Source: Minisyncoccota bacterium
GTDB lineage: Bacteria > Patescibacteriota > Minisyncoccia > Phycocordibacterales > Phycocordibacteraceae
Direction of reading: 5' to 3'
Assembly: GCA_036405415.1 (NCBI GenBank)
Contig: DASWXP010000002.1
Span: 556,450-620,449 of the forward strand
DNA: 64,000 bases
The notes beneath the pieces were generated by a model. That model was not told where the DNA came from. It ran no database searches and worked only from the letters and a program-made list of their open reading frames with translations. A program made the position numbers and the translations under genes. Below are positions 7,747 to 62,639 of the stretch, in pieces (positions within the stretch are counted from its first letter, which is position 1; each line of letters opens with the position of its first letter).

Positions 7747-7805
7747 ACGATTTCCGCAGTATAGCAGCCAGGGTTTCCCGGTCTTCGCTGATCAAGTACT
7801 TGGAG

Positions 7806-7811: not shown

Positions 7812-7818
7812 AGCTCCC

Positions 7819-11163: not shown

Positions 11164-11297
11164 ATGGAGTATATAACCCGCTTGTTTGAATAATAGTAGC
11201 ACCGATTCCCCGGGGGACCACCTAATTGACATCCCATACTCTACTGGTGAAAAGAAATCACATCGCCTTGGGTATTCATTGTTATACTCAAGCCACA

Positions 11298-15350: not shown

Positions 15351-15433
15351 CTTGGAAAGGGGTATTGGATATAACCTCGTTGCCCAGGGATTCGTGGCAG
15401 AAATCGGAAATCGAGTAGTATACTGGCCGCATC

Positions 15434-19049: not shown

Positions 19050-19055
19050 TATAGT
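19050..19055 (+). promoter_or_regulatory. -10-like hexamer TATAGT 7 nt upstream of secA ATG, within CCTATATATAG motif
   Basis: tacctatatatagttattcct-ATG. Confidence 0.35.
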
Positions 19056-19062
19056 TATTCCT

Positions 19063-21620: not shown

Positions 21621-21677
21621 TGTTCATAAGAACCTCGATACTAGATAAAGTCAACGTTCCGTGATACGGTGACTCTA

Positions 21678-22658: not shown

Positions 22659-22696
22659 CTGGCGGGCGGGAAGCCTGGCGTGCTAGCATTTCCTTT

Positions 22697-24188: not shown

Positions 24189-25103
24189 ATGTTAACCGAG
24201 GCAAGAAAGCTATATAGTATATGCATGGATGAGATAACTATTGGTGACAAGGTCTATATCTCGTCAAAGCGCGCCGCAAAAATTACTGGTTATGCGAAGG
24301 ACTATGTCGGCCAGCTTTGTCGTGAGGGCAGGGTTGAAGCGCGACTGGTAGGCCGAAACTGGTATGTCCTGGAATCTGCGATCCGTGAGCACCGCTTCGG
24401 TTCTGCGCATGAATCCAGCAATGTAGCAGCTAGCTCTGAGGAGGTTCCTGTTGAGGATAGGGCAAATACGTGGCAGAAACCTACATATATACCTGAAAAT
24501 CCTTTGATGGTGCCAGAACTTGCCCAGAAGCCTGTTCAAGAGCCAGTTTCAAGCCCTGCGATAGCTGATATGCAGTCTGCTTGGAGGGAGTGGTTCTCCG
24601 ATAAGAAGACAGTTGATGCGCTTCCTGACGGATCTGAAGACTTTAAGGACGAATATCTCCCTGTAGTGCTTGAAAGTGCCGAGCCTGTAGAGATAAGAGA
24701 AGAGGAAACCGTAACCCTGCAAAGAATAGAGTCTCCAGTTGAGGCAAAAAAGCCTGAAAGCAGTGAGGAAAGTGAGGTTGAGATTCACAAATCCTACGCC
24801 TCTAGGGAGACGGGAGAGCTGGTACCGCATACCAGCATTCCTGTAGTCGACCTAACACCTAAGAGCCAGGGTAGAAGCAGGCCTGTAAAGCCACTAAATC
24901 CGGCAGCAACCGCTAAAAAACCTTCGGGCAGTGGTGTAACCCGAGCGCTCCTGATTGTTCTCGCTTCGGTAGCAGTGCTAGTAGCTGTTGTAGGAACCGG
25001 TAATGCCGACAGATACATTGGCACTACTAGTACCGATTCAGGACCACAGAAAGCGATTCTGGACTTTCTCGGAGGAAAGAGTAGCTATAAAAGTACCCTA
25101 TAA
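24189..25103 (+). CDS. bitopic membrane protein with N-terminal excisionase-type HTH (HTH_17-like), acidic linker, C-terminal TM helix and short exposed tail
   Basis: KVYISSKRAAKITGYAKDYVGQLCREGRVEARLVGRNWYV matches the HTH_17 pattern and the N-terminus of the giant ORF at 25688; TM ALLIVLASVAVLVAVVG near C-terminus; alternative start ATG 24225. Confidence 0.5.
   Translation: MLTEARKLYSICMDEITIGDKVYISSKRAAKITGYAKDYVGQLCREGRVEARLVGRNWYVLESAIREHRFGSAHESSNVAASSEEVPVEDRANTWQKPTYIPENPLMVPELAQKPVQEPVSSPAIADMQSAWREWFSDKKTVDALPDGSEDFKDEYLPVVLESAEPVEIREEETVTLQRIESPVEAKKPESSEESEVEIHKSYASRETGELVPHTSIPVVDLTPKSQGRSRPVKPLNPAATAKKPSGSGVTRALLIVLASVAVLVAVVGTGNADRYIGTTSTDSGPQKAILDFLGGKSSYKSTL
24213..24218 (+). 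promoter_or_regulatory. -10-like hexamer TATAGT 6 nt upstream of ATG 24225
   Basis: gctatatagtatatgc-ATG. Confidence 0.3.
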
Positions 25104-39063: not shown

Positions 39064-39090
39064 GATACCACGCGCTATGCGCGTGGTATC
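39064..39090 (+). terminator. 12-bp perfect stem hairpin with 3-nt loop, followed by U-rich tcttattat
   Basis: gataccacgcgc-tat-gcgcgtggtatc. Confidence 0.5.
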
Positions 39091-39100
39091 GTCTTATTAT

Positions 39101-39490
39101 ATGGAACCCGTATCTCAAGCCGACCCTACCGAGCCTCGCACGAGAAGAGTCTTTATCATAATCTCCACCGTAGCGGTGCTCGCTGTCATAGTCGCAGGAG
39201 CGGCATACATGGCCTTCAATCCAAAAGAGAAGGAGGTCACGCTCATACGGAACTTCGCGTGTGCGGACGGTTCGCGGTATCTCGTGATCGACAATACGGA
39301 CAAGATTACCGTGTCCGGTCAGGAATTCGCCCGCGCCGGAGAGTCAGTGCCAGCTCGATACGAAAACGGCACGGATATAGCATTCGTGCTTAGCGAAGAC
39401 ACACTCGCAGTCGTTAACAATAAGACTGAGGAGTCCATCGCGACCTGCACAGCCCAGGCGGCTGAAGTTGATTTCGTAAAGGAGCAATAA
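39101..39490 (+). CDS. hypothetical single-pass membrane protein
   Basis: TM helix VFIIISTVAVLAVIVAGAAYMAF; start ATG 39101 chosen to sit after the terminator hairpin. Confidence 0.35.
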   Translation: MEPVSQADPTEPRTRRVFIIISTVAVLAVIVAGAAYMAFNPKEKEVTLIRNFACADGSRYLVIDNTDKITVSGQEFARAGESVPARYENGTDIAFVLSEDTLAVVNNKTEESIATCTAQAAEVDFVKEQ

Positions 39491-41495: not shown

Positions 41496-41501
41496 TATAC
41501 T
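41496..41501 (+). promoter_or_regulatory. -10-like TATACT 7 nt upstream of ATG 41509
   Basis: gcgctatactagggtgc-ATG. Confidence 0.35.
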
Positions 41502-41508
41502 AGGGTGC

Positions 41509-42231
41509 ATGGGAATCATAGTCCCGGCCATACTTCCGGTATCGCGCGAGGACCTCGAGCAGAAGCTCGATATTCTTGACGGTGTCTGCGAAGAGGTGCA
41601 GGTAGATATCGTGGACGGCGTCTATGCCGGTCCTGCGACCTGGCCCTATACCCGGGACGCGTCAGAACCGTCACGCATGCTCGCGGATGGGGAATTCCTC
41701 CCGAAAGCCGGTCGCTTCAGGATTGAAATCGATCTCATGAGCGGAGACCCGGAGTCTGTGGCGGGAACCTGGATCGGGCTCGGCGCTGCGCGTCTTACGA
41801 TCCACGCGGAGAGCACGCGGTACCTGCCGCGCTTCCTTGCGAGCACCCGCTCCCTGTACGGGCATGACAAGGAGTTCGAATCCGACCTGCTGTCGCTCGG
41901 CCTTGCTATTGGCGCAGAGACCGACCTCTCGCTGATCGAGCCCTATATCGACAAGATCGATTACGTGCAGTTCATGGGCATCCGTACCATAGGCAGGCAG
42001 GGCGAGCCGTTCGATATGCGCACGATCGCGAAGGTCCGGGCATTCCGGAAGAAGTACCCGAAGACGCCGGTGCAGGTGGACGGAGGCGTGACGCTCAAGA
42101 ACGCCGCAGAGCTCCTTGATGCGGGTGTGGCGCGCCTTGTCGTGGGCTCTGCGATCTGGCGCGCAGAGAATCCACTCGACGCGTATCGCGCGCTCGACGC
42201 CCTCACCGAGCAGCATGGGCTCTATGCATAG
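41509..42231 (+). CDS. rpe: ribulose-phosphate 3-epimerase-like (divergent)
   Basis: IVPAIL N-terminus, VQVDIVDG, later FMGIRTIGRQGEPFD motifs reminiscent of Rpe TIM barrel. Confidence 0.55.
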   Translation: MGIIVPAILPVSREDLEQKLDILDGVCEEVQVDIVDGVYAGPATWPYTRDASEPSRMLADGEFLPKAGRFRIEIDLMSGDPESVAGTWIGLGAARLTIHAESTRYLPRFLASTRSLYGHDKEFESDLLSLGLAIGAETDLSLIEPYIDKIDYVQFMGIRTIGRQGEPFDMRTIAKVRAFRKKYPKTPVQVDGGVTLKNAAELLDAGVARLVVGSAIWRAENPLDAYRALDALTEQHGLYA

Positions 42232-43012: not shown

Positions 43013-43018
43013 TATACT
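43013..43018 (+). promoter_or_regulatory. -10-like TATACT 8 nt upstream of ATG 43027
   Basis: ggtatactggaaggta-ATG. Confidence 0.35.
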
Positions 43019-43026
43019 GGAAGGTA

Positions 43027-43884
43027 ATGGCGCTTACCGATACCGACGTACGCATGCTCGAAGAGAAGGCGGAAGCTATCCGCGAGACGATACTCGACAT
43101 GCTCGTCCAGGCAGGAAGCGGACACACCGCAGGTCCGCTCGGCATGAGCGACCTCTTCGCCGCGCTCTACTTCAGGGTCCTTAGGTACGATCCGAAGAAT
43201 CCGGATTGGGACGAGCGGGACTATCTCGTCCTCAGTAACGGGCACACCGCGCCGGTGCGCTATGCGGCGATGGCGCATGCAGGCTATTTCCCGATAGAGG
43301 AATGCCTCACGCTCCGAAAGTTCGGGTCGCGCCTCCAAGGACACCCGGAGCGCACGAAGCTTCCGGGACTGGAGACTACGTCCGGACCTCTCGGTTCAGG
43401 ACTCTCCCAGGCGGCAGGCATGGCACTCGCGCTTTCCATGGACCGGAAGAAGAATCGCGTGTTCTGTATGATGTCAGACGGCGAGCAGCAGGAGGGGAAT
43501 ACCTGGGAAGCGGTACTGTTCGCATCCAAGTACGGGCTCGGGAACCTCACGGCCATCATGGACCGCAATTTCATCCAGATAGACGGCATGACGGAAGATG
43601 TGATGCCGCTCGATTCGCTCAAGGCGAAATACGAATCCTTCGGATGGGAGGTGCTCGAGATCGACGGGCACAACATGAAAGCTATCGTGGACGCCTGCGA
43701 GGAAGCGAAAGCTATCGTTGAGAAGCCGACCTTGATCATCGCGCGCACGATTCCAGGGAAGGGCGTACCTGAGATCGAGTACGATTATAAGTGGCATGGA
43801 AAGCCGCCTACCAAGGAAGAGGCAGCTCGGTTCATGAAAGAGCTACGCAGCGGTGCGGGGAGGGTACCACACGAATATGCTTAA
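43027..43884 (+). CDS. tkt: transketolase, N-terminal (TPP-binding) subunit
   Basis: SGHTAGPLGMSDLFAALYF...SNGH motifs of transketolase N-terminal section. Confidence 0.85.
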   Translation: MALTDTDVRMLEEKAEAIRETILDMLVQAGSGHTAGPLGMSDLFAALYFRVLRYDPKNPDWDERDYLVLSNGHTAPVRYAAMAHAGYFPIEECLTLRKFGSRLQGHPERTKLPGLETTSGPLGSGLSQAAGMALALSMDRKKNRVFCMMSDGEQQEGNTWEAVLFASKYGLGNLTAIMDRNFIQIDGMTEDVMPLDSLKAKYESFGWEVLEIDGHNMKAIVDACEEAKAIVEKPTLIIARTIPGKGVPEIEYDYKWHGKPPTKEEAARFMKELRSGAGRVPHEYA

Positions 43885-44866
43885 CAAGAACGTAAGACTC
43901 TCAGACAAGATTTTCTCGAAGGATATTGAGCGAGCTCCGACGCGCGACGGATTCGGGCGCGGCACGGTTGCAGCAGGGAAGAAGGATGAGAACGTCGTGG
44001 TGCTGTGCGCCGATCTTAAGGAATCGACGCGCGCGGAATGGTTCGAGAAGGAGTTTCCGGACCGCTTCATCGAGGTGGGAGTAGCGGAGCAGAACCTCGC
44101 GACCGCCGCCGCAGGCATGGCAGCGATCGGGAAGCGCCCGTTCATCGCAAGCTACGCCGCGTTCAGTCCGGGCCGCAACTACGAGCAGATCCGCACGACC
44201 ATCGCGCTCAACGAGCAGCCGGTAGTGGTGTGCGGCATGCACGCGGGCGTGTCGGTTGGTCCTGACGGCGCGACGCACCAGATGCTCGAGGACATCGGGC
44301 TCATGCGCATGCTTCCGGGCATGTCTGTCATCGTGCCGGGGGACGCGGTAGAGGCGCAGAAGGCAGTCGAATACGCGGCTGTCGCAAGTCATCCTACCTA
44401 CATACGCTTCGGCAGGTCTCCGGTTCCGACCTTCACTACCTCAGAGACCCCGTTTGCATACAGCAAGGCGATCTCGGTGTGGGAGAGCGACAAGCCGAAG
44501 GTAGCGCTCATGGCGACCGGCGCGCTCACCTACGAAGCGCTCGTTGCGGCAAAGGCGCTCGCGGCTGACGGCATCGAGGTCTCGGTGCTGCACGTGCCAT
44601 TCGTTAAGCCGCTTGACGAGGAAGCGGTGCTTGCGGCGGCAAAGCGCGCAGGCCGGGTCATTACGATCGAGGAGCATCAGGCAGCGGGCGGGTTCGGCAG
44701 CGCCGTTGCGGAATTCCTTTCAGGCGCGTATCCGGTGCCGGTCATGCGTCTCGGCGTCCAGGATCAGTTCGGACAGTCCGGCGAACCGCAGGAACTCCTT
44801 TCGCACTACGGCCTCACGGCTCCGGAGATAACCGCTGCGGTGCGCAAGTCGCTCGGGGTATACTGA
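43877..44866 (+). CDS. tkt: transketolase, C-terminal (pyrimidine-binding) subunit
   Basis: FIEVGVAEQNLATAAAGMA..., split-tkt arrangement; ATG 43877 overlaps upstream stop. Confidence 0.85.
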   Translation: MLNKNVRLSDKIFSKDIERAPTRDGFGRGTVAAGKKDENVVVLCADLKESTRAEWFEKEFPDRFIEVGVAEQNLATAAAGMAAIGKRPFIASYAAFSPGRNYEQIRTTIALNEQPVVVCGMHAGVSVGPDGATHQMLEDIGLMRMLPGMSVIVPGDAVEAQKAVEYAAVASHPTYIRFGRSPVPTFTTSETPFAYSKAISVWESDKPKVALMATGALTYEALVAAKALAADGIEVSVLHVPFVKPLDEEAVLAAAKRAGRVITIEEHQAAGGFGSAVAEFLSGAYPVPVMRLGVQDQFGQSGEPQELLSHYGLTAPEITAAVRKSLGVY

Positions 44867-45036
44867 TGCCTATGAAAGGCAAGAAGCTCTCAGGATACGC
44901 GATCGCTTTCATCTTCTTTATGCTCGGGGTAGCAGCAACCCTGATCATCCTTACGGCAGCGAACCGCGCGGAATCGATGCATGAGGATTACGATTCCATA
45001 AACCCCGCAGACCTGAACGCGGACTTCGGACGATAG
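44866..45036 (+). CDS. hypothetical small membrane protein (56 aa; missed by ORF track)
   Basis: MPMKGKKLSGYAIAFIFFMLGVAATLIILTAANRAE...; ATG overlaps tkt stop (TGATG). Confidence 0.3.
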   Translation: MPMKGKKLSGYAIAFIFFMLGVAATLIILTAANRAESMHEDYDSINPADLNADFGR

Positions 45037-45065: not shown

Positions 45066-46085
45066 TTAGGGTGTAGTGAGCCTATACGAATCAGGTGCGG
45101 TCCTGAGGTATTCCTCGAGCGCCTCGCGCGTGAGTAGGCCTTCCTGGCCGCCGATCTTCTGTACGACCGACATGGAATTCACGGGTCCCCACAGGAGCGC
45201 CTCCTCAAGCGGCTTCCCGAGCGTGAGCGCGGCCGTCACGGTCGAGGCGAACGAATCCCCGGCGCCCGTGCGCTCGAACGGCTCGCGGGTATCCGGATAC
45301 ATAGGTACGAAGTACTGCTGCTCGCCGTTAAACGCATATGCGCCTGCGCGGCCGTCCGTAATGATCACGGTCTTCGGTCCGAGCGCGCGGATGCCTGAAA
45401 GGAGCGCTGACATCTCGGGCGTTCCGGAAAGGCCGAGGATGCGCGCCGCCTCCTCCTTGTTGCAGAAGAAGAGATCCGTGCGGGCGTAGATGCGCGAAAG
45501 GCGCTCGGTGCCCATGGCCATCTGGAAGGTGCCTGGCTGGAATACGAGACGCATGTCCGGACGCTCCTCAGCGAAATCAGCGATCGCCTCGTAGTACGAG
45601 TCCGGTACTTCGCCGAGCGAGGAGAGGTACAGCGTTTTCACGTCCGGCAGGTCGTTCGGGAAATAGTAGGCATAGGTCTCATGCTTCACGAGGATGGTGC
45701 GCTCGCTCTCGAACCACAGCACGTAGTGGTAGTTGGTCTTCTTGCCTTCCTGGAGCGCCACGTAGCTCGTGTCTACGCCGTTGCCGCGCAGGCTTAAGAG
45801 GATCTCTTCGCCGTACTGGTCCTTTCCGGTGTTCGAGATGAGGGAGCTCGAAAGGCCGAGGCGCGCGGCAGATACGGAGGCGTTCGCGGAATTGCCGACG
45901 CCTGAGACCTTCGTGGAGGATTCGAATGGGATCTTATCCCCGAAGCGCATGCAGATCTCGCAGCTCCCGTCCTGGATGTTGCAGTTCGTGCGTGCGTCCT
46001 TGAGGCGGATAAAGTCGTCGATGACGGTGTCGCCGATGGCGAGGAAGTCGATCCCTCCCTTGGGAGTGCGTGAGAATAGCTTCAT
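45066..46085 (-). CDS. PfkB-family carbohydrate kinase (ribokinase/fructokinase-like)
   Basis: Ribokinase-like fold motifs incl. C-terminal GAGDSFASTVTAAL (PfkB signature 2). Confidence 0.7.
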   Translation of the reverse strand: MKLFSRTPKGGIDFLAIGDTVIDDFIRLKDARTNCNIQDGSCEICMRFGDKIPFESSTKVSGVGNSANASVSAARLGLSSSLISNTGKDQYGEEILLSLRGNGVDTSYVALQEGKKTNYHYVLWFESERTILVKHETYAYYFPNDLPDVKTLYLSSLGEVPDSYYEAIADFAEERPDMRLVFQPGTFQMAMGTERLSRIYARTDLFFCNKEEAARILGLSGTPEMSALLSGIRALGPKTVIITDGRAGAYAFNGEQQYFVPMYPDTREPFERTGAGDSFASTVTAALTLGKPLEEALLWGPVNSMSVVQKIGGQEGLLTREALEEYLRTAPDSYRLTTP

Positions 46086-46132
46086 GCGCCGATACTAACA
46101 CGTAGCCAAACCATGCCCTGATGGCTGGGGGC

Positions 46133-46138
46133 TATACT
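46133..46138 (+). promoter_or_regulatory. -10-like TATACT 6 nt upstream of ATG 46145
   Basis: ggctatactgggacc-ATG. Confidence 0.35.
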
Positions 46139-46144
46139 GGGACC

Positions 46145-47143
46145 ATGACTGATCTCTCTGGTATCGCGCGTTCCTTAGTCGCTCCCGGCAAGGGGATCCT
46201 CGCCGCAGACGAGGGCAACGAGACTGCGGACAAGAAGCGCCTTGAAGCGTTCGGCATCGCGACCGGTCCTGAGATGCGCAGGAAATTCCGTGATCTTCTC
46301 CTTGCAACGCCGGGCATCGAGCAGTACCTCACGGGCGTCATCCTCTATAAGGAAACGCTGGAGCAGGAAAGTCTCGAGGGAATCCCGTTCCCGAAGCTCC
46401 TCCTTGAAAAGGGCATCGCTCCCGGCATCAAGGTGGACGAGGGCCTCGATCCGCTTGAGGGAAGCCCGGACGAGACGATTACGAAAGGGCTCCTCGGGCT
46501 GCCCGAGCGGCTTCTCGAATACCGCGAGCGACACCAGACGAGCTTCACGAAGTGGCGAGCGGCGATCCGTATCAGCGGAGATCGCCTCCCGACGAAGAAG
46601 GCGTTGCTTGAGAATGCGAAGCGTCTGGCGTCGTACGCGTGCGAAGTGCAGAGGGCGGGTATGGTGCCTATGCTCGAGCCTGAGGTACTGCTCGAAGGGA
46701 ATCACAGCCGCCTTCGCGCGCGCAAGGTGATCGAGGAATCAATGACCATGCTCTTCGATACACTGAACGAACAGTGCGCGGATATCTCCGGCGTCATCGT
46801 GAAGACTTCCATGGCGCTCTCAGGAAGCGGGACCGGCAGGACCGATACGCCGGAAGAGGTTGCTGAGGATACGCTCTGCGCTTTGATGGCGACGGTACCA
46901 GCAGACGTTGGCGGCATCGTGTTCCTCTCGGGAGGTCAGTCGCCGGACCAGGCGACCGAGAACCTGCGTGCTATAACGACGCTCGCAAAGAAACTCAAGG
47001 CGCCGTGGCCGCTCACGTTCAGCTACGCCCGCGCGTTCCAAGAGGAGGCGCTCCAAATATGGAAGGGGAAGGACGAGAACGTGGAAGCCGCCCGGGATGC
47101 ATTCGTGGCGCGCCTCAAGAAGGCTTCAGACGCGCTGCTATAA
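46145..47143 (+). CDS. fba: class I fructose-bisphosphate aldolase
   Basis: GKGILAADEGNETADKKRLEAFG class I FBA signature; ATG 46145 preferred over 46121. Confidence 0.8.
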   Translation: MTDLSGIARSLVAPGKGILAADEGNETADKKRLEAFGIATGPEMRRKFRDLLLATPGIEQYLTGVILYKETLEQESLEGIPFPKLLLEKGIAPGIKVDEGLDPLEGSPDETITKGLLGLPERLLEYRERHQTSFTKWRAAIRISGDRLPTKKALLENAKRLASYACEVQRAGMVPMLEPEVLLEGNHSRLRARKVIEESMTMLFDTLNEQCADISGVIVKTSMALSGSGTGRTDTPEEVAEDTLCALMATVPADVGGIVFLSGGQSPDQATENLRAITTLAKKLKAPWPLTFSYARAFQEEALQIWKGKDENVEAARDAFVARLKKASDALL

Positions 47144-47151
47144 TTTGAGGT

Positions 47152-47382
47152 ATGGACGTTAAGTTTGATGAGACTTCGTACGCTCCTCGGACGACCCAGG
47201 CTGCGCGTACCTCTGTTATGACGAGCCTCGTTATGAAGGCAGGTCTTGCAAAGGACGAGAAGGAGGCTAACCATGTGTTCTTATGGATAATCGGCCTATG
47301 CCTGCTCATACCCGCCGGCCTTTGGCTCGTTCCAGCACTCATACCCGATCCCGAGGTTCAACCCATAGTCTTGCCGAAATGA
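47152..47382 (+). CDS. hypothetical small membrane protein
   Basis: TM helix FLWIIGLCLLIPAGLWLVPALI; weak. Confidence 0.2.
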   Translation: MDVKFDETSYAPRTTQAARTSVMTSLVMKAGLAKDEKEANHVFLWIIGLCLLIPAGLWLVPALIPDPEVQPIVLPK

Positions 47383-48572: not shown

Positions 48573-48578
48573 TATACT
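48573..48578 (+). promoter_or_regulatory. -10-like TATACT 10 nt upstream of ATG 48589
   Basis: ggtatactactagtccca-ATG. Confidence 0.35.
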
Positions 48579-48588
48579 ACTAGTCCCA

Positions 48589-49920
48589 ATGAAGCGAATC
48601 GTTGTCGTACTTTCCGTGTTCGCGCTCTTGGTCGCCGGTCCCGCCGCGATCCTCGCGCAGGAACTAACTGCGAGCGAGCGCGCCGAGCTCGAGCGGCAGC
48701 TCGCGGACCTCGAGCGCGAGATGCAGAAGACACAGGCTACGATCGACAATCTTTCCGCACAGGGCGCTTCGCTCCAGCGCGATATCGCCATCCTCGACGG
48801 AGAGATCAAGCGCGCGCGCCTCAAGGTGCAGACCGCAGAAGCCGAGATCCGTGCGCTCGCGGCAGGCATCGTGGTGCACACGCGCACCATAGGAACGCTT
48901 AGCGAGAAGATGGTGCGCGAACGGGACTCGCTCGCGCAGATCCTGCGCAAGACCGATGCGATCGACGACTACACGCTCGTCGAAGCGGTGCTTTCAGGCG
49001 CCGAGATCTCTGATTTCTTCAGCGACCTCGATACGTTCGCCTCGATCAAGCAGGCGATGCGCACCTCCTTCGAGGAGCTCCGGGCTACGAAGGCGGAAAC
49101 GCAGGAAGAGCGATCGGGTCTCGAGAGCCAGAAGACCGATCAGGAGATCCTCAGGTCTGCGCTCGTGCTCGCGCAGCGCGAGGTAGAGGCGAAGGAAGCC
49201 GAGAAGAAGAAGCTCCTGGCTGAGACGAAGGGGCAGGAGAGCCTGTACCGCGGCCTCAAGTCCTCGCAGGAACAGACTGCGGCGCAGATCCGCGCGAAAC
49301 TGTTCCCGCTGCGCGATACCTCGGGCATCCAGTTCGGAGATGCGGTGCGCTATGCGCAGACCGCGAGCGCGCGTACCGGAGTGCGCCCGGCGCTCATCCT
49401 CGCGATCCTTTCGCAGGAAAGCGATCTCGGAAAGAACGTAGGACAGTGTCTCATCACGGATCTTGCAACCGGAGACGGAAAGGGCAAGAACACCGGTACG
49501 CCGTTCCCGGGAACCATGAAGGCGCCGCGCGACACGGTTCCGTTCGAGCGTCTCATGAAGGCCGCAGGCCGCGATCCTCTGAATACGCCGGTCTCATGTC
49601 CGCTTCCGGGCGGCTACGGCGGCGCGATGGGTCCGACCCAGTTCATCCCAAGCACCTGGGAGATGTACGAAGGACGCATCAAGGCCGCGCTTGGCGTGTC
49701 TGCGGCAGATCCGTGGAATGCGTCCCATGCGGTTATGGCTACCGCGCTCTATCTCGCTGATGTGGGTGCAGGAGGCGGAACCTATCTCGCGGAGCACACG
49801 GCAGCCGCCAAGTACTACGCAGGAGGGAACTGGGCCTCGAGCGGCCAGGGATACGGCAACAGCGTGATGAGCAAGGCCGCAGCGTTCCAGAAGGACATCG
49901 ACTTCCTCGAGGCGAATTAG
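48589..49920 (+). CDS. secreted coiled-coil protein with C-terminal lytic-transglycosylase-like (SLT_2/MltB-type) domain
   Basis: Signal peptide; ~230 aa heptad-rich region; C-terminal GAMGPTQFIPSTW signature. Confidence 0.6.
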   Translation: MKRIVVVLSVFALLVAGPAAILAQELTASERAELERQLADLEREMQKTQATIDNLSAQGASLQRDIAILDGEIKRARLKVQTAEAEIRALAAGIVVHTRTIGTLSEKMVRERDSLAQILRKTDAIDDYTLVEAVLSGAEISDFFSDLDTFASIKQAMRTSFEELRATKAETQEERSGLESQKTDQEILRSALVLAQREVEAKEAEKKKLLAETKGQESLYRGLKSSQEQTAAQIRAKLFPLRDTSGIQFGDAVRYAQTASARTGVRPALILAILSQESDLGKNVGQCLITDLATGDGKGKNTGTPFPGTMKAPRDTVPFERLMKAAGRDPLNTPVSCPLPGGYGGAMGPTQFIPSTWEMYEGRIKAALGVSAADPWNASHAVMATALYLADVGAGGGTYLAEHTAAAKYYAGGNWASSGQGYGNSVMSKAAAFQKDIDFLEAN

Positions 49921-49970: not shown

Positions 49971-49976
49971 TATATT
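49971..49976 (+). promoter_or_regulatory. -10-like TATATT 5 nt upstream of ATG 49982
   Basis: ccctatatttgtat-ATG. Confidence 0.3.
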
Positions 49977-49981
49977 TGTAT

Positions 49982-51940
49982 ATGAACGCCACACTCAAGA
50001 CGCTCCTCCTCAGCTTGTTTATCGGTATCGGAATCGCAGGATTCTTCCTTGCGCCCCAGCCCGCGAACGCAGCCGCATGTAATTTCAGCAACACGAACAT
50101 ACGAATCGCGTGGACTCCGAGTTCTCCCTATGACATGCAGGGAGGAACAAGCAGCTACTCCTATTCTCCCGGCACCACGGTAGCGAGATCCTACGGAGAA
50201 CTGAGCCTCAACCCTCAAACACCGAGGAACTGGACGGTGTCGGTGAACGTGACGAATAACGGGGTCACAAAGACATTGAGCACGTCAGAGTGTAACTGGG
50301 CGTATATCAACGGTCCGTGTTACACCCAGACAGGGGATCAGGATATCGGAGGTGCGACCTTCAATATGTTTTTCGAGGTGCAGTCTTATATAAAGGCTGA
50401 GATTACCTGTACGCCATCGCCTGAAGTAACGCCAGACCTTATCGGACAGGTCGGTGGCGCTCGTACCGTACAGGCGGAGCAGCCGGTTACCCTTTATGGA
50501 GCGATCGCGAATAGTGGCGGAAACGCCGGAGCATTCGAGAACATCATCCAGGTATGCGACCAGAGCTGCTTCACGCTTAACCGAATACTCTCAGCGACCA
50601 CGCTGTCGTCACTCGCTGCAGGGAGCTCTGCGGCCATATCCGCAACATTTACACCGGCCGCAACTCCTGGCGTCACGGACTACATGTATCGAGTGTGCGC
50701 GAACACGCGTGTTACTACGAGCAAGGGATCAAGCACCTGGAGCAACCCTGCTACTGAATCCAATTATGCGAACAACTGTAGCGGGTGGCAGTCCCTCACG
50801 ATCCAGCAAGCGCCGGTGCCGCCGACCGCAAACCTGACACTGACACCAGCGTCCATTGCTTACGGGGGCGCATCCATCCTGCAGTGGGGCTCGACGAATG
50901 CCACGTCCTGCACCGGTACCAACTTCTCGACGGGAGGGGCGACTTCGGGAAGTGTGTCCGTAACGGCGACGCAGAACACAACCTACACCGTGACGTGTAC
51001 GGGCGCTGCGGGAAGCGCGTCCGATTCCGAGCTTCTTAGCGTCGGCGCACAGCCGCAGCCAGACCTGGTCGCAGGTACGGTGACTGCGGGAAGCCCGCAG
51101 GCAGGCGTCTCCGCGACACTTTCAGCGGATGTTACCAACGTCGGTCCTGCAACCTCAGGCTCGTTCCCGATCCTCTTCCAAGTGTCCGAGACCGGCGCGC
51201 TCGCGCAAAGCGGGTATCTTGCGGCGCTCGGCTCCGGAGCCTCCCGAAGCGGGTCTGCGTCCTACACGTTCCCTGCGGCCGGAACCTACCAGGTCCGAGC
51301 ATGCGCTAACTACAATACGAGCTGGACAGCAATTACGACTGAGTCGAATTATGCGAACAATTGCGGACCGTGGACTACCATAACCGTTTCTTCTGCGCCG
51401 CAGCCGCCAGCCCTCTCCTGCAGCGTATCGCCAACGTCGGTTGCCCTGGGAGGATCGGTCACGTATAGGGCGAATCCGTCCGGCGGCGCATCAGGTCCCT
51501 ATACCTGGGTTGCAGCAGATGGCGGTAGCTATGGCACGGGCGCAACCGTAACCCGAACCTTCACGGCTTCGGGAACCTACGCCATGAACGTGGATACGTC
51601 CTCGACCGCGAGATCCTACTGTCCGAACGTGACGGTGACGTCGAACGCATGCAGCGGGGCAAGCACGAATCTCACGATAACCGCGACCCCTGAGCGCGTT
51701 CGGGCGGGGCAGTCATCGACCATAACCTGGAACGCTACTGGAGTGAATGGAGAGAGTGCCACCTGCACGGTCTCAGGTCCGGGCATATCCTGGAGCTCTC
51801 CGGTATCCGCAGCGCCGCAGTGTTCCGTAGGTGGCTCAGCATCCGCAACGATTGCCTCTCAGAGCACCTACACCCTCACCTGCGGCGGGGTCTCCGAGAA
51901 CGTCGTGGTGAACGTGATCCCGAAGATTATCGAGTTCTAG
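49982..51940 (+). CDS. secreted CARDB-domain adhesin-like protein B (C-terminal module ending NVIPKIIEF)
   Basis: Signal peptide MNATLKTLLLSLFIGIGIAGFFLAPQPANA; ANNC[SG][GP]W motifs; C-terminal ~300 aa paralogous to 39499..40992. Confidence 0.6.
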   Translation: MNATLKTLLLSLFIGIGIAGFFLAPQPANAAACNFSNTNIRIAWTPSSPYDMQGGTSSYSYSPGTTVARSYGELSLNPQTPRNWTVSVNVTNNGVTKTLSTSECNWAYINGPCYTQTGDQDIGGATFNMFFEVQSYIKAEITCTPSPEVTPDLIGQVGGARTVQAEQPVTLYGAIANSGGNAGAFENIIQVCDQSCFTLNRILSATTLSSLAAGSSAAISATFTPAATPGVTDYMYRVCANTRVTTSKGSSTWSNPATESNYANNCSGWQSLTIQQAPVPPTANLTLTPASIAYGGASILQWGSTNATSCTGTNFSTGGATSGSVSVTATQNTTYTVTCTGAAGSASDSELLSVGAQPQPDLVAGTVTAGSPQAGVSATLSADVTNVGPATSGSFPILFQVSETGALAQSGYLAALGSGASRSGSASYTFPAAGTYQVRACANYNTSWTAITTESNYANNCGPWTTITVSSAPQPPALSCSVSPTSVALGGSVTYRANPSGGASGPYTWVAADGGSYGTGATVTRTFTASGTYAMNVDTSSTARSYCPNVTVTSNACSGASTNLTITATPERVRAGQSSTITWNATGVNGESATCTVSGPGISWSSPVSAAPQCSVGGSASATIASQSTYTLTCGGVSENVVVNVIPKIIEF

Positions 51941-52261: not shown

Positions 52262-52315
52262 AGAGGGGAGGAAGAAGGCGCGGGGCCCTATGGTCCCGCG
52301 CCTCTCCCGTTACGC

Positions 52316-52321
52316 TATACT
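52316..52321 (+). promoter_or_regulatory. -10-like TATACT 9 nt upstream of ATG 52331
   Basis: gctatactcagagacac-ATG. Confidence 0.35.
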
Positions 52322-52330
52322 CAGAGACAC

Positions 52331-53287
52331 ATGATCGACTACTCGCCCGAGTTCAAGCAGAACCATCAGACCGCATATCTTGCGGAGGAGTATGAGCGGT
52401 TGTCGCGCGAGAAGACGGAAGCACTTGAGGCGGCCGGCGAGGACGCGGTGCTTCGCGAGATGGCTGCAGAAGACGAAGCGCGCATCGAGGCACGCCAGAA
52501 GGACATCCTCCTTGAGATCGAGAAGATCCTCGACAAGGAGAAGGAAGAGGCTGCAGCAGCCAAAGCGATCGTGCTTGAGTTCCGCGCAGGCGCAGGCGGC
52601 GACGAGGCGAACCTCTTCGCGCAGGAGCTCCGCGATATGTATATGAAGTACGCGGAAGGGAAGCGCTGGCGCGTGCGCAGCATCGACGACCTCACGCTCG
52701 AGATCGAGAGCGCGGAAGCCTATGAGGCGCTCCGGTACGAGACCGGCGTACATCGCGTGCAGCGCGTTCCGGTTACGGAGAAGTCCGGACGCATCCATAC
52801 CTCTACCGCGTCCGTTGCGGCGCTCCCGATCCGGCAGAAGCCGGTGGTTACGATTAATCCGTCCGACATCGAGATGGAGTTCACCCGCTCAGGAGGTGCC
52901 GGAGGCCAGAACGTGAACAAGGTGGAGACGGCGGTCCGTCTCATCCATACGCCGTCGGGTATCGATGTGCGCTCATCCAGCGAGCGCAGCCAGCTTGCGA
53001 ACCGCGAGAAGGCCATGGCAATCCTCGCCGCGAAGCTCGAGGCGCTTGCTATAGAGAAGGAGGCGTCCGAGCATGCGGCGCTCCGATCCGGCCAGATCGG
53101 CACCGGGGACCGCTCGGAGAAGATCCGGACCTACAACTTCCTCCAGGATCGCGTGACTGACCATCGTCTCAAGGAATCCTGGCACAACCTCCCGAAGATC
53201 CTCCAGGGCGGGATTGACCCTATCGTGGGGGCTCTCCAGGCGGCTGCCGAGAGCGGGGGTATCGGGGCGGCCGAGGATGGCGATTGA
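52331..53287 (+). CDS. prfA: peptide chain release factor 1 (short form)
   Basis: GGQ motif ([20 protein letters not shown]) and PVT tripeptide (RF1-type PxT) in [14 protein letters not shown]. Confidence 0.75.
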
Positions 53288-53321
53288 TAGGAAAAAGGCC
53301 TTGTGGTAAGCTAGCGAAATC

Positions 53322-54032
53322 ATGACTGAAGTATCACAGACCGCCATGAGCGGCCCTGGCGTTGAGCGTCTATTCGGCGCCGGCGCTCATTTTGCGCAGG
53401 TGAAGAGCCGTCGCCATCCGACCATGCGTCCGTTCGTGCTCGGCGCGAAGTCCAATGTCGAGATCTTCGACCTTAAGAAGACCGATGAGCAGCTCGCGAA
53501 GGCGAAGTCCGTAATGGCAGCGCTCGCACGCGATGGCAAGGTAGTCCTCGTCGTCGGCGGCAAGCGCGAGGCTCAGGACGGCGTAAAGGCAATCGGCAAG
53601 CGCCTCGGCGTTCCGTTCGTCGCCGGCCGCTGGCTCGGCGGTACGCTCACGAACTTCACGGAGATCAAGAAGCGCATCGATCGCCTTGCTGACCTTTCTC
53701 AGAAGCGTGACAACGGCGAGCTCGCAAAGCTCTACACGAAGCTCGAGCGCATCCGCATCGACCGCGAGATCGAGAAGCTCACGACCCGCCTTTCCGGCCT
53801 TACCTCGCTCCAGCGCCGCCCGGACGCGATGGTTATCGTCGATACCCGCCATGAGGCGCATGCGTCCCGCGAGGCACGCGCGCTCGGCATCCCGGTCATC
53901 GGCGTGATGAGCTCTGACTGCGACCTTAAGGACGCGACCTACCCGGTGGTAGTGAACGACGCATCCCGCGACACCATCGCGCTCGTGCTCGACGAGCTCG
54001 CGTCTGCGTACGAGTCAGGCCTCAAGGGCTAG
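53322..54032 (+). CDS. rpsB: ribosomal protein S2
   Basis: GAHFAQVKSRRHPTMRPFVLG..., S2 signature; start possibly ATG 53346. Confidence 0.9.
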   Translation: MTEVSQTAMSGPGVERLFGAGAHFAQVKSRRHPTMRPFVLGAKSNVEIFDLKKTDEQLAKAKSVMAALARDGKVVLVVGGKREAQDGVKAIGKRLGVPFVAGRWLGGTLTNFTEIKKRIDRLADLSQKRDNGELAKLYTKLERIRIDREIEKLTTRLSGLTSLQRRPDAMVIVDTRHEAHASREARALGIPVIGVMSSDCDLKDATYPVVVNDASRDTIALVLDELASAYESGLKG

Positions 54033-55160: not shown

Positions 55161-55580
55161 TCACGAAGGGAAGAGAAGCGAGAGGTCGCGGAGTGCCTCA
55201 CGCTCGTTGATAGGGCGGTGCACGGCGTTCTCCCACCAAGGCGCGTCTCCCATGCGCTCTTCTGACGCGCCGCTTGCGAACCGCGCGCGCAGGGTGTGCG
55301 GGCGACAGCGACGGGGATCGCTATCATCTCCCACGACCTCAAGGAGCCGGTCGATGCTCGCAACCTCAAGGAGAAGCGCGATGCCGTCCATGCCGCAGAG
55401 TCGCGCGGCTATGGCGTCCCGCGCGCTCTGGTCCATGTGGTCGTAGAGCGCGTGCACGAGCGCTTTTGTGTAGGTGATACGCTTCTCGCGAATAATCGAG
55501 ACTCCCTCATTCTTAAGCGCAGCGACAATCTCGTCACGGCGCCCAGTCGCCTTAGGCTTGATGATGCAGCACGCACGCAT
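55161..55580 (-). CDS. nucleoside-diphosphate-kinase-like protein (divergent)
   Basis: CCIIKPKATGRRDEIVAALKNEGVSII resembles NDK N-terminus; NAVHRPINEREALRDLSLLF resembles the NIIHGSDS...E..WF end. Confidence 0.45.
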   Translation of the reverse strand: MRACCIIKPKATGRRDEIVAALKNEGVSIIREKRITYTKALVHALYDHMDQSARDAIAARLCGMDGIALLLEVASIDRLLEVVGDDSDPRRCRPHTLRARFASGASEERMGDAPWWENAVHRPINEREALRDLSLLFPS

Positions 55581-55679
55581 GGCTTCCTCCTAACGAACCA
55601 AGGTCCAGTGAGAATATAGGAAGCGGTTGATAGGAGTTTCCTGGATTAAACATAAAGTTTCCGGTATCGTAGCGTAATC

Positions 55680-55752
55680 GCCGGGATAGCTCAGTTGGTA
55701 GAGCAACGGTTTTGTAAACCGTAGGTCGCGAGTTCAAGCCTCGCTCCCGGCT
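55680..55752 (+). tRNA. tRNA-Thr (anticodon UGU)
   Basis: Cloverleaf folded by hand: acceptor GCCGGGA/TCCCGGC, D stem GCTC/GAGC, anticodon stem ACGGT/ACCGT with loop TTTGTAA, T stem GCGAG/CTCGC with loop TTCAAGC; 73 nt, CCA not encoded. Confidence 0.85.
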
Positions 55753-55762
55753 CAGGCAAGAG

Positions 55763-57813: not shown

Positions 57814-57819
57814 TATACT
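57814..57819 (+). promoter_or_regulatory. -10-like TATACT 9 nt upstream of pheS ATG
   Basis: ctgtatactgcggaagac-ATG. Confidence 0.35.
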
Positions 57820-57828
57820 GCGGAAGAC

Positions 57829-58557
57829 ATGGATTCGGGACGCTTGCATCCGCTCTCAGCAGACATTCGCCAGATCGCGGCGATATTCGCGCGCATGGGA
57901 TTCGGGATCGCCTACGGCCCTGAGCTCGAGGACGAGCATCATAACTTCGATGCACTGCGCATGCCTGCGGATCATCCGGCACGCGACATGCAGGATACGT
58001 TCTGGACGAAGGAAGAGACGCCTCGTGCGCCACGCACGCATACCACGTCAGTTACGATCCGCTGCCTCGAAGAGATGGCGAAGAGCGGACAGTCCGAAGC
58101 GCGCATGATTGCTCCTGCGAAGGTGTTTAGAAACGAGGCGACCGACGCGACGCATGAGGCGCAGTTCTATCAGCTCGACGGGTTCGCCGTAGGACCGAAG
58201 GGAACGGTTACGCTCGCGCACTTGAAGGGAACGTTCGACTATTTCTATCGCCAGTATCTCGGCGAGGACGCGAAGGTGCGCTTCCGTCCGAGCTTCTTCC
58301 CGTTCGTCGAGCCGGGCGTCGAGATCGACGTGTGGTACGAGGTTCCCGGCAAGAAGGGCAGGTGGCTCGAGACCGGTGGCGCAGGCATGCTCCATCCTGA
58401 AGTCATCAGGAACGCTGGCCTCGATCCTGATAAGATCGCTGGCTTTGCGTTTGGGGGCGGTATTGAGCGACTTCTTATGGTGAAGTACGGCATCCCGGAC
58501 GTGCGCGCCTTCCATAACGGCGATATCCGCTTCACATACGGGTTCGATCCCGCATAG
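57829..58557 (+). CDS. pheS: phenylalanine--tRNA ligase alpha subunit (short form)
   Basis: Class II aaRS motifs (FRPSFFPFVEPGVEIDV, GAGMLHPEV, GFAFGGGIERL). Confidence 0.85.
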   Translation: MDSGRLHPLSADIRQIAAIFARMGFGIAYGPELEDEHHNFDALRMPADHPARDMQDTFWTKEETPRAPRTHTTSVTIRCLEEMAKSGQSEARMIAPAKVFRNEATDATHEAQFYQLDGFAVGPKGTVTLAHLKGTFDYFYRQYLGEDAKVRFRPSFFPFVEPGVEIDVWYEVPGKKGRWLETGGAGMLHPEVIRNAGLDPDKIAGFAFGGGIERLLMVKYGIPDVRAFHNGDIRFTYGFDPA

Positions 58558-58560
58558 CAT

Positions 58561-60465
58561 ATGAGGATATCCAAGAAATGGCTCCAGCAATACTTTGACT
58601 CAGCGCTCCCAGACACGGAGGCGCTTTCGGACGCGCTCACGTTCCATGTCGCAGAGATTGAAGAGGCTACGAGTGACATGCTCGATGTTAAGGCGCTTCC
58701 GGACCGGGCGGCGTACCTCATGTCGCACCGCGGTGTTGCGCTTGAGCTCGGGGCAGCGCTCGGAATGCCTCTCAAGTCTGATCCGCTCCGAAAGGAGCTT
58801 CCGGTGTTCCCTGAAACCGACGAGCTCTCGGTCTCGCTCGATGCGGAAGGCAAATGCAATCGCTACATGGGCGCCCTCGTGAAGGGCGTGAAGGTCGGCC
58901 CGTCCCCGGCATGGCTCAAGGAGGCGCTTGAGTCCGTAGGACAGCGCTCCATCAACAACGTCGTGGACGCTACGAACTACGTGATGCTCAATATCGGGCA
59001 GCCGCTCCATGCGTTCGACGCGAAGAAGCTCTCCGTGCGCGACGGCAAGTACGCCATCGCTGTCCGCATCGCTACCGAAGGAGAGGCGTTCACGTCGCTT
59101 ACGGGAGAGGAGTACGCGCTTCCGGAGGGAACGCTTGTAATTGTCGACGGCAACAATGACGCGGTGCTCGGTGTGGCCGGTGTGAAAGGCGGGAAGGAAG
59201 CGCAGGTGGATGAGCGTACTACTGACCTTGTCATCGAAGCGGCGAACTTCGACGGCACGCAGGTGCGCCGCACCGCGCAGAAACTGAAGCTCTTCACCGA
59301 TGCGTCTTCGCGCTTCCAGAATCGTCCATCTCCTGCACTCGCCGCCTACGGCATGCGCGACGTGCTCGCGCTCATAACGGATATCGCAGGCGGCACGGTA
59401 GCGGGCGTCACGGATATCTATCCAAATCCTGAGGAGCCTCAAACGGTGTCGGCCTCTTTGCTTGAGGTGAACGCGGTGCTCGGCACGTCACTTTCCATGG
59501 ACGAGGTGCGTGCAGCGCTCACGCGCCTCTCGTTCTCCTTCGAGGAAGTCGAGGACCGATTCATCGTCCTCGTGCCGTTCGAGCGTCGGGACCTTTCTAT
59601 ACCTGAAGACCTGATCGAAGAGATAGGCCGTACGATCGGATACGACTCCATTGCTGGTGTGCAGCTCCCGGTATCAGCAGGCGAGCCGGAGCAGGCACGC
59701 TATCGCGGCATCGAGCGCGTGAAGGACTTCCTTATCGAGCGCGGCTACGCAGAAGTGTCCACGCCGTCGTTCGCAGGAGAGGGTGAGGTCCTGCTCGCGA
59801 ATCCGCTCCAGGAGGAGAAGCCGTACCTGCGCGCTTCGCTCATCGAGAACGTAAAGGATGCGCTTACGCGCGCCGCTCAGCTCGCGCCGCGCGTGATAGG
59901 GCCGGAGCAGTTTGTGCGGCTCTTTGAGGTGGGGAACGTATTCACGGCGAAGGGAGAGCATCTCGTCCTTTCGGTGGGTGCAGTGCCGCTTTCAGGAAAG
60001 CCTGCTAAGGCAGCGGAGCTCCTTCAGCAGGACGTACTCGCGCTCTCGCAGGATCTTGTCGGCGCTCCGCTAACGCCGCGCTACAGCCTCGACGGGCAGG
60101 TCATGGAGTTCGATCTCGGTGCGCTCAATCTCGAGAAGCTCGGGGAGGACTATGCGCCGAAGACGGTACGCTTAGGAGCGTTCCGTCCGTATTCCCAGTA
60201 TCCGTTCGCGCTCCGCGATATCGCGGTGTGGACGCCTGAAGGAACGACCGAGAGCGAAGTGGCGAACGCCATCGTGAAGGATGCCGGAGCATTCCTCGTG
60301 CGTCTCGACTGCTTCGACCGCTTCGAGAAGGAAGGCAGGACCTCCTACGCGTTCCGCCTCGTGTTCGAGTCTATGGAGCGCACCCTCGCTGATACGGATC
60401 TCGATCCTGCTATGCAGCGGGTTACCGACGGCCTGAACGCGAGAGATGGCTGGGAAGTGCGCTAA
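58561..60465 (+). CDS. pheT: phenylalanine--tRNA ligase beta subunit (short form)
   Basis: MRISKKWLQQYF start and B3/4 domain motifs. Confidence 0.85.
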   Translation: MRISKKWLQQYFDSALPDTEALSDALTFHVAEIEEATSDMLDVKALPDRAAYLMSHRGVALELGAALGMPLKSDPLRKELPVFPETDELSVSLDAEGKCNRYMGALVKGVKVGPSPAWLKEALESVGQRSINNVVDATNYVMLNIGQPLHAFDAKKLSVRDGKYAIAVRIATEGEAFTSLTGEEYALPEGTLVIVDGNNDAVLGVAGVKGGKEAQVDERTTDLVIEAANFDGTQVRRTAQKLKLFTDASSRFQNRPSPALAAYGMRDVLALITDIAGGTVAGVTDIYPNPEEPQTVSASLLEVNAVLGTSLSMDEVRAALTRLSFSFEEVEDRFIVLVPFERRDLSIPEDLIEEIGRTIGYDSIAGVQLPVSAGEPEQARYRGIERVKDFLIERGYAEVSTPSFAGEGEVLLANPLQEEKPYLRASLIENVKDALTRAAQLAPRVIGPEQFVRLFEVGNVFTAKGEHLVLSVGAVPLSGKPAKAAELLQQDVLALSQDLVGAPLTPRYSLDGQVMEFDLGALNLEKLGEDYAPKTVRLGAFRPYSQYPFALRDIAVWTPEGTTESEVANAIVKDAGAFLVRLDCFDRFEKEGRTSYAFRLVFESMERTLADTDLDPAMQRVTDGLNARDGWEVR

Positions 60466-60479: not shown

Positions 60480-62639
<2,160 letters not shown>

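Follow-up and report, generated by a model that had tools for sequence, protein, structure and literature searches.

The mRNAs of most transcription units are very probably leaderless in the Minisyncoccota bacterium whose DNA was analyzed here and in about 80 related species, as the signals found around their start codons suggest. The DNA is a 64,000-nt stretch of contig DASWXP010000002.1 (hereafter the window; 58% GC), and the site that drew attention to this mode of expression lies immediately upstream of prfA (52316..52333, + strand), where the hexamer TATACT (52316-52321) is followed by a 9-nt spacer (cagagacac) and by the ATG at 52331, as verified by re-reading the sequence and by comparing the orthologues. 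We consider it likely that this hexamer and its counterparts at other genes are sigma-70-type -10 boxes from which transcription would start at, or up to about 5 nt before, the AUG, and that the downstream cistrons of each unit would be coupled to the preceding ones.

A -10-like hexamer precedes the start codons of most non-coupled genes

The original prediction had listed 14 genes in which a -10-like hexamer and a short spacer precede the ATG. When the sequence was re-read, all 14 arrangements were found where they had been placed, but the tally was too low, as at least 11 further genes (ATG at 787, 7746 (- strand), 11161 (- strand), 11298, 15434, 22697, 53322, 46085 (- strand), 39101, 21678 and 47379) had been missed. 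The same layout was tallied at about 25 genes, two small open reading frames (ORFs) and one tRNA gene, the genes amounting to about 25 of the 36 non-coupled genes of the window (~70%), with a median spacer of 8-9 nt and a maximum of 12 nt.

To quantify the enrichment, a long ORF was defined as an ATG opening at least 80 codons, and spacers of 5-12 nt were accepted. TATACT occurs 18 times on both strands of the window, and in 12 of the 18 cases it is followed at this distance by the ATG of a long ORF, against a chance expectation of 0.55 (binomial P ~1e-14). For the more relaxed TATAnT the figure was 16 of 40 copies, against 1.2 expected, and 10 control hexamers of matched composition gave 0-3 hits apiece.

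The looseness of the TAnnnT pattern, which has 891 copies in the window, might suggest an artefact of freely chosen start codons in A/T-rich intergenic DNA, and some individual assignments (TACGGT at obg, CATACT at rplY, and those of CARDB-C and pilin b) could indeed be due to chance. However, such an explanation does not account for the strict hexamers and their controls, and the choice of start codons was not circular, because in 13 genes (cofD/yvcK, the methyltransferase gene (MTase), GT25, wzy, gatB, rpe, tktN, pfkB, SLT, rpmE, prfA, rpsB and pheS) the ATG adjoining the box is the earliest possible start codon of the ORF, with no alternative upstream. Start codons further downstream were ruled out as well, since the Pfam domains begin 1-18 residues past the proposed ATGs. 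Moreover, the same procedure applied to 50 kb of Escherichia coli K-12 gave no -10 peak before ATGs, and the box is conserved in 90-100% of the orthologues of many of these genes, compared with 1-15% at control offsets (see below). Enrichment, conservation and the E. coli control effectively refute the artefact, which we regard as extremely improbable.

The hexamer is conserved upstream of first genes in related species

To extend the analysis beyond the window, a comparison set of 80 loci from related species (1.24 Mb, 54% GC) was used. The relatives of PrfA at 70-84% identity come from metagenome-assembled genomes (MAGs) labelled Patescibacteria, Parcubacteria, Paceibacteria/Paceibacterota, Minisyncoccia or Candidatus Kaiserbacteria, and a block of these records carries an automatic Saccharibacteria label. 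The gene content of the window fits the candidate phyla radiation (CPR), with a split transketolase, a class I aldolase and type IV pilins, and with CARDB and LTD surface proteins and shortened PheS, PrfA and EF-Ts as further CPR-like content.

In the 1.24 Mb of the relatives, TATAnT followed by the ATG of a long ORF was 10-14 times more frequent than expected at spacers of 6-9 nt, with a sharp onset at 6 nt (a single case at a spacer of 5 nt, against 3.4 expected) and a tail to about 14 nt. Upstream of prfA, TAnnnT was present at 4-13 nt from the start codon in 76 of 78 species, the spacer being 6 nt in 39 of them and 7 nt in 19. When the rpmE-prfA intergenic regions were aligned, the T, A and T of TAnnnT were the sole invariant columns past the hairpin that follows rpmE.

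The orthologues of individual genes were then searched for TAnnnT at 5-12 nt before the start codon, which is ATG in essentially all of them, and the same search was carried out at a control offset. Among genes that are first in their unit, the box was observed in nearly all orthologues of rpmE (73/74), prfA (74/77), rpsB (37/41), pheS (43/47), fba (32/33, with spacers of 6-7 nt), tktN (9/9) and SLT (10/10, with spacers of 8-12 nt), and less regularly in those of tsf (50/73) and gyrB (16/24, mostly with spacers of 11-12 nt), the rate at the control offset being 1-15%. The longer spacers of SLT and gyrB are therefore kept across their orthologues. The box was also found in 4 of 7 rpe orthologues. 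In contrast, the coupled internal genes pheT (3/43), hyp138 (4/53), tktC (3/13) and rpiB (1/7) carried it in 7-23% of the orthologues, which is the background level. The box is thus a property of the first genes of units and not of coupled internal genes, which is the distribution that characterizes the group C genomes discussed below.

The hexamer has the features of a sigma-70-type promoter

Positions T1, A2 and T6 of the hexamer are fixed, and positions 3-5 vary, being mostly T, A and C, respectively. At 674 sites of the family a T is present at -3 in 43% and a G at -2 in 57%, as in the TGn of extended -10 promoters; TGn was found at 184 of 380 orthologous sites (48%), at 11 of the 25 window sites and in 60 of the 73 rpmE orthologues with TAnnnT. 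A -35 TTG at a spacing of 16-18 nt was observed in 53/73 of these rpmE sites, versus 2/73 at a control offset, and in 36/37 rpsB sites, versus 4/37. Both sequence hallmarks of a sigma-70-type promoter, i.e., the T1/A2/T6 hexamer and either TGn or a -35 TTGnnn, are therefore present. Of 212 box-adjoining ATGs, 174 (82%) directly follow a pyrimidine, versus 57% of other long-ORF ATGs (P ~1e-14), which fits the Y(-1)R(+1) rule for start sites as expected if the A of the ATG is +1. In agreement with this, the minimum spacer of 6 nt and the peak at 6-9 nt match the distance between a -10 box and the transcription start site (TSS).

The TSSs and the mode of ribosome loading can be proposed by analogy with experimentally characterized systems. 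Most of the promoters would belong to the extended -10 class (TGnTAnnnT) and have no usable -35 box, and those of rpmE, rpsB and rplY would carry a TTGnnn -35 as well. At spacers of 6-9 nt, RNA polymerase would start at the A of the ATG, and at spacers of 10-12 nt transcription would start 1-6 nt before the ATG. The resulting mRNA would have a nil or vestigial 5' untranslated region devoid of a Shine-Dalgarno (SD) sequence, and the ribosome would load directly on the 5'-terminal AUG. Later cistrons would be translated by termination-reinitiation, their ATG overlapping or abutting the preceding stop codon (gap of -8 to +8 nt).

The box is not restricted to protein-coding genes. TATCGT is located 9 nt upstream of the mature 5' end of tRNA-Thr(UGU) (55665..55753, + strand; mature tRNA 55680-55753), so that its 5' leader would measure about 1-3 nt, and the 71 syntenic tRNA-Thr genes of the relatives showed a peak of TAnnnT 8-11 nt upstream (32/71). 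The presence of the same box in front of a tRNA gene argues that it acts on transcription and not on translation. A strong terminator hairpin lies 3' of tRNA-Thr (~55766-55795).

These data bear on the alternative that TAnnnT works at the level of the mRNA, as a non-SD element for ribosome binding or as an enhancer, similar to the A/U-rich signals of Bacteroidetes ('group B') or to S1-binding sites, within a longer leader transcribed from a promoter further upstream. The box does sit where a ribosome-binding site (RBS) would be, SD sequences are absent, and A/T-rich sequence near start codons can favor initiation. Nevertheless, such an element would be equally needed by the internal cistrons, before which it is absent (pheT, hyp138 and tktC, as above), and the fixed T1/A2/T6 around variable positions 3-5, together with TGn and a -35 TTG spaced by 17 nt, bear the signature of RNA polymerase. 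The hard minimum spacer of 6 nt agrees with the -10-to-TSS geometry. The box before tRNA-Thr and the conserved hairpins located directly upstream of the boxes, which leave no space for another promoter, are also difficult to reconcile with it, and we consider an mRNA-level element very unlikely.

The best example of such a hairpin is the GC-rich, terminator-like structure without a U-tract that follows the rpmE stop codon (52276..52303, + strand), whose folding energy is -35.9 kcal/mol (z-score -3.7) and which is kept in the relatives, 8 of its 10 pairs showing compensatory changes. The prfA -10 box starts 13 nt past its end, and no other promoter fits between the hairpin and the prfA ATG. Comparable hairpins are located upstream of the boxes of SLT, rpmE, secA and hyp129. 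GC-rich hairpins following stop codons (52276-52303, 51960-51990, 39062-39090 and 19007-19023) mostly lack a U-tract and lie 5-15 nt upstream of the next -10 box; they may be U-tract-less terminators, or stabilizers of 3' ends lying over the -35 position of the promoter that follows.

It could also be argued that the boxes are real but secondary or internal promoters, that expression depends mainly on polycistronic read-through, and that leaderless translation is minor, the ATGs being internal to read-through transcripts and initiated in an SD-independent manner. Some boxes do lie in short same-strand gaps with no recognizable terminator (21 nt at rpe, 24 nt at tktN, 34 nt at rpsB and 38 nt at gatB), and tsf and gapdh initiate without SD or adjacent -10 box, so that a mechanism of this kind must exist. 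However, strong conserved hairpins separate many boxes from the upstream gene (rpmE/prfA, L25/SLT, CARDB-B/rpmE and secA), and read-through is excluded in the divergent regions MTase/GT25, Polysacc_synt_2/GT2b, pfkB/fba and GT2d/pheS. In addition, a minor promoter would hardly account for purifying selection that keeps the box at a fixed distance in 90-100% of the species, and the preference for a pyrimidine at -1 is peculiar to box-adjoining ATGs. A predominantly secondary role of the boxes is therefore improbable, though less so than an mRNA-level element, and transcription starting at or next to the AUG is the reading that we prefer.

Shine-Dalgarno signals and coupled genes

No positional peak of GGAGG, AGGAG, GGAG, GAGG or AGGA was found before the ATGs of long ORFs, either in the window or in the 1.24 Mb of the relatives. 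The procedure itself detects such signals, as GGAG was found 8, 8 and 5 times at spacers 6, 7 and 8, respectively, in the 50 kb of E. coli K-12 used as positive control, against 0.6 expected. Pairing energies computed with the canonical anti-SD for the 20 nt preceding 48 start codons of the window averaged -2.8 kcal/mol, compared with -3.5 kcal/mol for random 20-mers; the original claim that the listed genes have no GGAGG-like RBS thus holds, the upstream pairing being no better than random. Likewise, SD-like 4-mers were present at 3.9% of 688 orthologous starts, versus 12.2% of random windows.

Initiation at internal genes appears to follow a different route. Termination-reinitiation at overlapping stop and start codons is an established phenomenon, and the internal genes of the window share its stop/start geometry; here it would operate with no assisting SD. 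For each of the 12 genes that are clearly internal, the gap between the preceding stop codon and the ATG is -8 to +8 nt, with an ATGA overlap in 5 of the 12. At the pheS/pheT junction (58555..58563, + strand), for instance, pheT begins with the ATG at 58561, 3 nt after the stop codon of pheS, with neither a -10 box nor an SD sequence, and SD-like motifs were found in only 2 of 43 pheT orthologues.

The sole gene of the window with a canonical leadered layout is ndk (55578..55618, - strand), where TATATT (55618) is followed by a leader of about 25 nt, AGGAGG (55591-55586), 5 nt and the ATG at 55580, with an anti-SD pairing energy of -10.2 kcal/mol. The 80 loci yielded no orthologue of ndk.

Several observations weigh against leaderless expression as the general rule. 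All the evidence consists of sequence statistics and comparative genomics. The mRNAs of gyrB, SLT and the methyltransferase gene probably have leaders of 3-6 nt, and not none, because the spacers reach 12 nt and are longer than the 6-7 nt of Deinococcus and Mycobacterium. The weakest case is rplY, with TAnnnT in only 13 of 39 orthologues (33%), and -35 support is confined to a few genes. A strict two-hexamer promoter scan between 44 and 64 kb gave 6 sites versus 4.7 expected, i.e., no enrichment, a result that is to be expected because extended -10 promoters mostly lack a -35 box. The 3' end of 16S rRNA, which carries the anti-SD, was searched for in the window and in the 80 loci and none was there, and an Rfam search of the window returned one tRNA only. 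As indicated by the AGGAGG of ndk, SD recognition may not be wholly lost. Finally, about 10 genes of the window have no adjacent -10 box, SD or tight coupling (tsf, gapdh, hyp227, hyp138, flippase, GT2c, GT-D b, GT2d, CARDB-C and the giant ORF), and since they fit none of these routes, a further initiation route exists.

Four of these genes, tsf, gapdh, hyp227 and hyp138, begin 22-53 nt after the preceding gene on the same strand (gaps 54033-54085, 37982-38034, 56493-56514 and 54668-54700, respectively), and the box found at 5-12 nt in tsf orthologues (50/73) is often an A/T-rich, TAAnTT-like one.

Nevertheless, the original proposal of leaderless or near-leaderless mRNAs was supported on every sequence-level prediction that could be tested.

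Comparison with known systems

In Deinococcus-Thermus, the TANNNT motif located 6-7 bp upstream of ORFs has been experimentally shown to be a -10 region that gives leaderless mRNA (PMC12340547). The present pattern resembles that system (de Groot 2014; Zhong et al. 2025, PMC12340547) in the position of the motif next to the ORF, the lack of an SD sequence and the conservation between species, as well as in the share of genes involved, about a third or more, and in that the box reveals mis-annotated starts (PMC12340547). In contrast with Deinococcus, where TACACT is preferred, spacers are of 6-7 nt and the other genes have a second, GGAG RBS motif, the preferred hexamers here are TATACT, TATAGT or TATCAT, spacers are broader (6-12 nt) and no SD signal is detectable; the lineage is Patescibacteria/Parcubacteria, and its leaderless mRNAs are predicted from the sequence.

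The arrangement, first surveyed in PMC3160421, corresponds to the computationally defined 'group C' of GeneMarkS-2, whose operons have a Pribnow box some 10 nt from their first gene and to which 90% of Actinobacteria and 97% of Deinococcus-Thermus belong (PMC6028130). Confirmation of this type by TSS mapping and reporters is available for Mycobacterium (PMC3898074) as well as for Deinococcus and Thermus (PMC12340547). The features shared with group C genomes such as Mycobacterium tuberculosis (Lomsadze 2018, PMC6028130; Cortes 2013, PMC3898074; Zheng 2011, PMC3160421) are a scarce or absent -35, a frequent TGn and internal genes devoid of the motif. However, the internal and leadered genes of group C bacteria use SD sequences, whereas none was observed here and stop/start overlaps appear instead; the dual model in which the remaining genes use SD does not describe the window, where only ndk has a clear AGGAGG. 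The share of units also differs, about 70% in the window versus 25-50% predicted for group C bacteria. As in the 'group B' Bacteroidetes, SD-independent initiation is the rule, but the group B motif precedes all genes within a leadered mRNA, and the box described here is a promoter-like element restricted to first cistrons.

Within the same broad lineage, Tsurumaki et al. 2022 detected the CCTCCT anti-SD in only 48% of the 16S rRNAs of Parcubacteria (PMC9297842), and noted that SD helices are presumably not formed in some Parcubacteria, leaving the consequences open (PMC9297842). The absent SD signal reported here fits those data, although that work examined rRNA and ribosomal proteins (PMC9297842) and the present one mRNA start regions. 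A search of full-text literature, whose coverage leaves out subscription journals, yielded for CPR, Patescibacteria, Parcubacteria or Saccharibacteria no account of leaderless expression, the matches being citations of GeneMarkS-2, YchF or leaderless secretion. With the pattern described here, predominantly leaderless expression, known from Actinobacteria and Deinococcus-Thermus, would also be represented in the CPR. It is a textbook pattern for two other phyla; what gives it weight here is its dominance, the absence of an SD signal, the link to anti-SD loss in Parcubacteria and the effect on start-codon annotation.

A more far-reaching and still tentative proposal, which we regard as possible and somewhat less than an even bet, is that the Parcubacteria/Paceibacteria lineage has given up SD-dependent initiation almost entirely, with leaderless first cistrons (~70% of the units), re-initiated downstream cistrons and tRNA promoters placed no more than about 10 nt from the mature 5' end. 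If this were true, few bacteria would have as high a share of leaderless units, which would be similar to that of haloarchaea, and the proposal would provide a mechanistic answer to how translation starts in the Parcubacteria (about half) reported without a 16S anti-SD motif. The box and the absent SD signal together offer a testable explanation for the anti-SD loss reported in many Parcubacteria. From a practical point of view, modules composed of TGnTATACT, 6-9 nt and ATG could serve as minimal promoter/start modules for genetics in these uncultured or co-cultured organisms.

Consequences for gene starts and small genes

Start-codon calls in these MAGs are systematically affected, with the -10 box marking the true start: compared with the longest ORF, secA is 22 codons shorter, fba 8, L25 20 and L31 24. 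The shortened starts previously put forward for fba (46145), secA (19063) and CARDB-B (49982) agreed with Pfam coordinates and orthologues. For fba, the class I aldolase gene (46133..46147, + strand; TATACT-6-ATG), position 2 of the aldolase profile falls at residue 4 counted from 46145, and for secA (19050..19065, + strand; TATAGT-7-ATG), whose start lies at 19063 and not at 18997, position 4 of the SecA_DEAD profile falls at residue 8. The CARDB-B gene (49971..49984, + strand; TATATT-5-ATG) has a signal-peptide-like N terminus when read from 49982; no CARDB-B orthologues were found in the 80 related loci.

The -10 box also exposes small genes overlooked by ORF tracks. Two small ORFs that escape a 100-aa cut-off, both on the + strand, were located in this way, one of 54 aa with one hydrophobic helix (44859..44874; TATACT-7-ATG 44872) and one of 76 aa with a hydrophobic helix (47139..47154; TATAAT-7-ATG 47152), the stop codon of the latter overlapping the pilin start (ATGA at 47379). 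Both (44859-45036 and 47139-47382) have weak, full-length homologues in 4 related loci each. The box assigned to that pilin gene, pilin b (ATG 47379), is counted among the weaker ones.

Individual sites in the window

The following sites are on the + strand unless otherwise indicated. Adjacent to prfA, rpmE (L31; 51975..52015) has a -35 TTGCTG, 17 nt, TGg TATAGT (51998), 9 nt and the ATG at 52013, the Met at 52013 being position 1 of the Pfam L31 profile. A similar -35/-10 arrangement was observed at rpsB (S2; 53284..53324), with TTGATA, 17 nt, TGg TAAGCT (53307), 9 nt and ATG 53322, and at rplY (L25; 47840..47880), with TTGCCA-17-CATACT (47863)-9-ATG 47878, where position 1 of Pfam L25p corresponds to residue 5 of the product. 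Further downstream, pheS (57814..57831) shows TATACT-9-ATG 57829, and gyrB (60516..60536), with TGc TATACT-12-ATG 60534, probably has an mRNA leader of about 5 nt. The SLT transglycosylase gene (48573..48591; TGg TATACT-10-ATG 48589) is preceded by a terminator hairpin (48526-48558) located before the box.

Among the genes of carbohydrate metabolism, TATACT is followed by 8 nt and ATG 43027 at tktN, which encodes the N-terminal subunit of transketolase (43013..43029), and by 7 nt and ATG 41509 at rpe (41496..41511), and a pfkB-family kinase gene (46083..46097, - strand) carries TGt TAGTAT-6-ATG 46085. The hypothetical 129-aa gene hyp129 (39087..39103) has a hairpin followed by TGg TATCGT-8-ATG 39101. 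A hypothetical 292-aa gene (24213..24227) shows TATAGT-6-ATG 24225; no Pfam family was found for its product, and the 'HTH' label given to it earlier has no Pfam support. In gatB (22684..22699; TGc TAGCAT-7-ATG 22697), position 2 of Pfam GatB_N falls at residue 7, and in obg (21665..21680), which has the weak box TGa TACGGT-7-ATG 21678, position 1 of GTP1_OBG falls at residue 4.

In the first part of the window, the layout was observed at the Wzy_C/TPR gene (wzy; 15419..15436, TATACT-9-ATG 15434), at a GT2 glycosyltransferase gene (11283..11300, TGt TATACT-9-ATG 11298; position 2 of the Pfam GT2 domain at residue 8), at a Polysacc_synt_2 epimerase/dehydratase gene (11159..11173, - strand, TATACT-6-ATG 11161; Pfam domain from residue 7), at GT25 (7806..7821, TACAAT-7-ATG 7819), at the methyltransferase gene (7744..7763, - strand, TGc TATACT-11-ATG 7746), at the cofD/yvcK-like gene (3704..3718, TACTAT-6-ATG 3716; Pfam CofD position 1 at residue 4) and at a TrwB/VirD4-like ATPase gene (775..789, TATACT-6-ATG 787).

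Some copies of TATACT on the - strand were examined and discarded. Those at 15422 and 24221 were ruled out as promoters, being the reverse reading of the palindromic AGTATACT / TATAGTATA sequences, and the one at 14805 does not mark a gene start, as the ATG that follows 13 nt on falls inside the Pfam domain of the flippase. The palindromic AGTATACT (15418-15425), located between the divergent flippase and wzy genes, reads as a -10 box on either strand, and its minus-strand copy at 15422 would leave the flippase gene with a leader of about 60 nt. The palindromic TATAGTATATG (24213-24226) also reads as a -10 box on either strand.

Other observations

The polysaccharide/glycosyltransferase cluster at 5000-18600 has a GC content of 51-54%, below that of the rest of the window, and the same TATACT-ATG layout, which suggests that, if the cluster was acquired horizontally, it was taken from, or has become adapted to, a host that shares these expression signals. 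An A/T-rich stretch at 24110-25690 holds the hypothetical gene of 292 aa and, ahead of the giant ORF, 584 nt of non-coding sequence. Within this stretch, ARAGORN reported a tRNA-Asn(GTT) at 25445-25521 with an odd anticodon position that Rfam does not confirm at gathering score; this candidate could represent a pseudo-tRNA or what is left of an integration site, or else be a false positive. The giant ORF (25688-37981; ~4,100 aa) may start at TTG 25688 or at ATG 25946, and has no adjacent -10 box and no SD. Finally, several proteins are shortened: PheS (57829-58557) has 242 aa and consists of the catalytic core only, EF-Ts (54086-54667) has 193 aa, and PrfA (52331-53287) has 318 aa, with the PCRF profile matching from position 30, in keeping with reports of small proteins in CPR bacteria.

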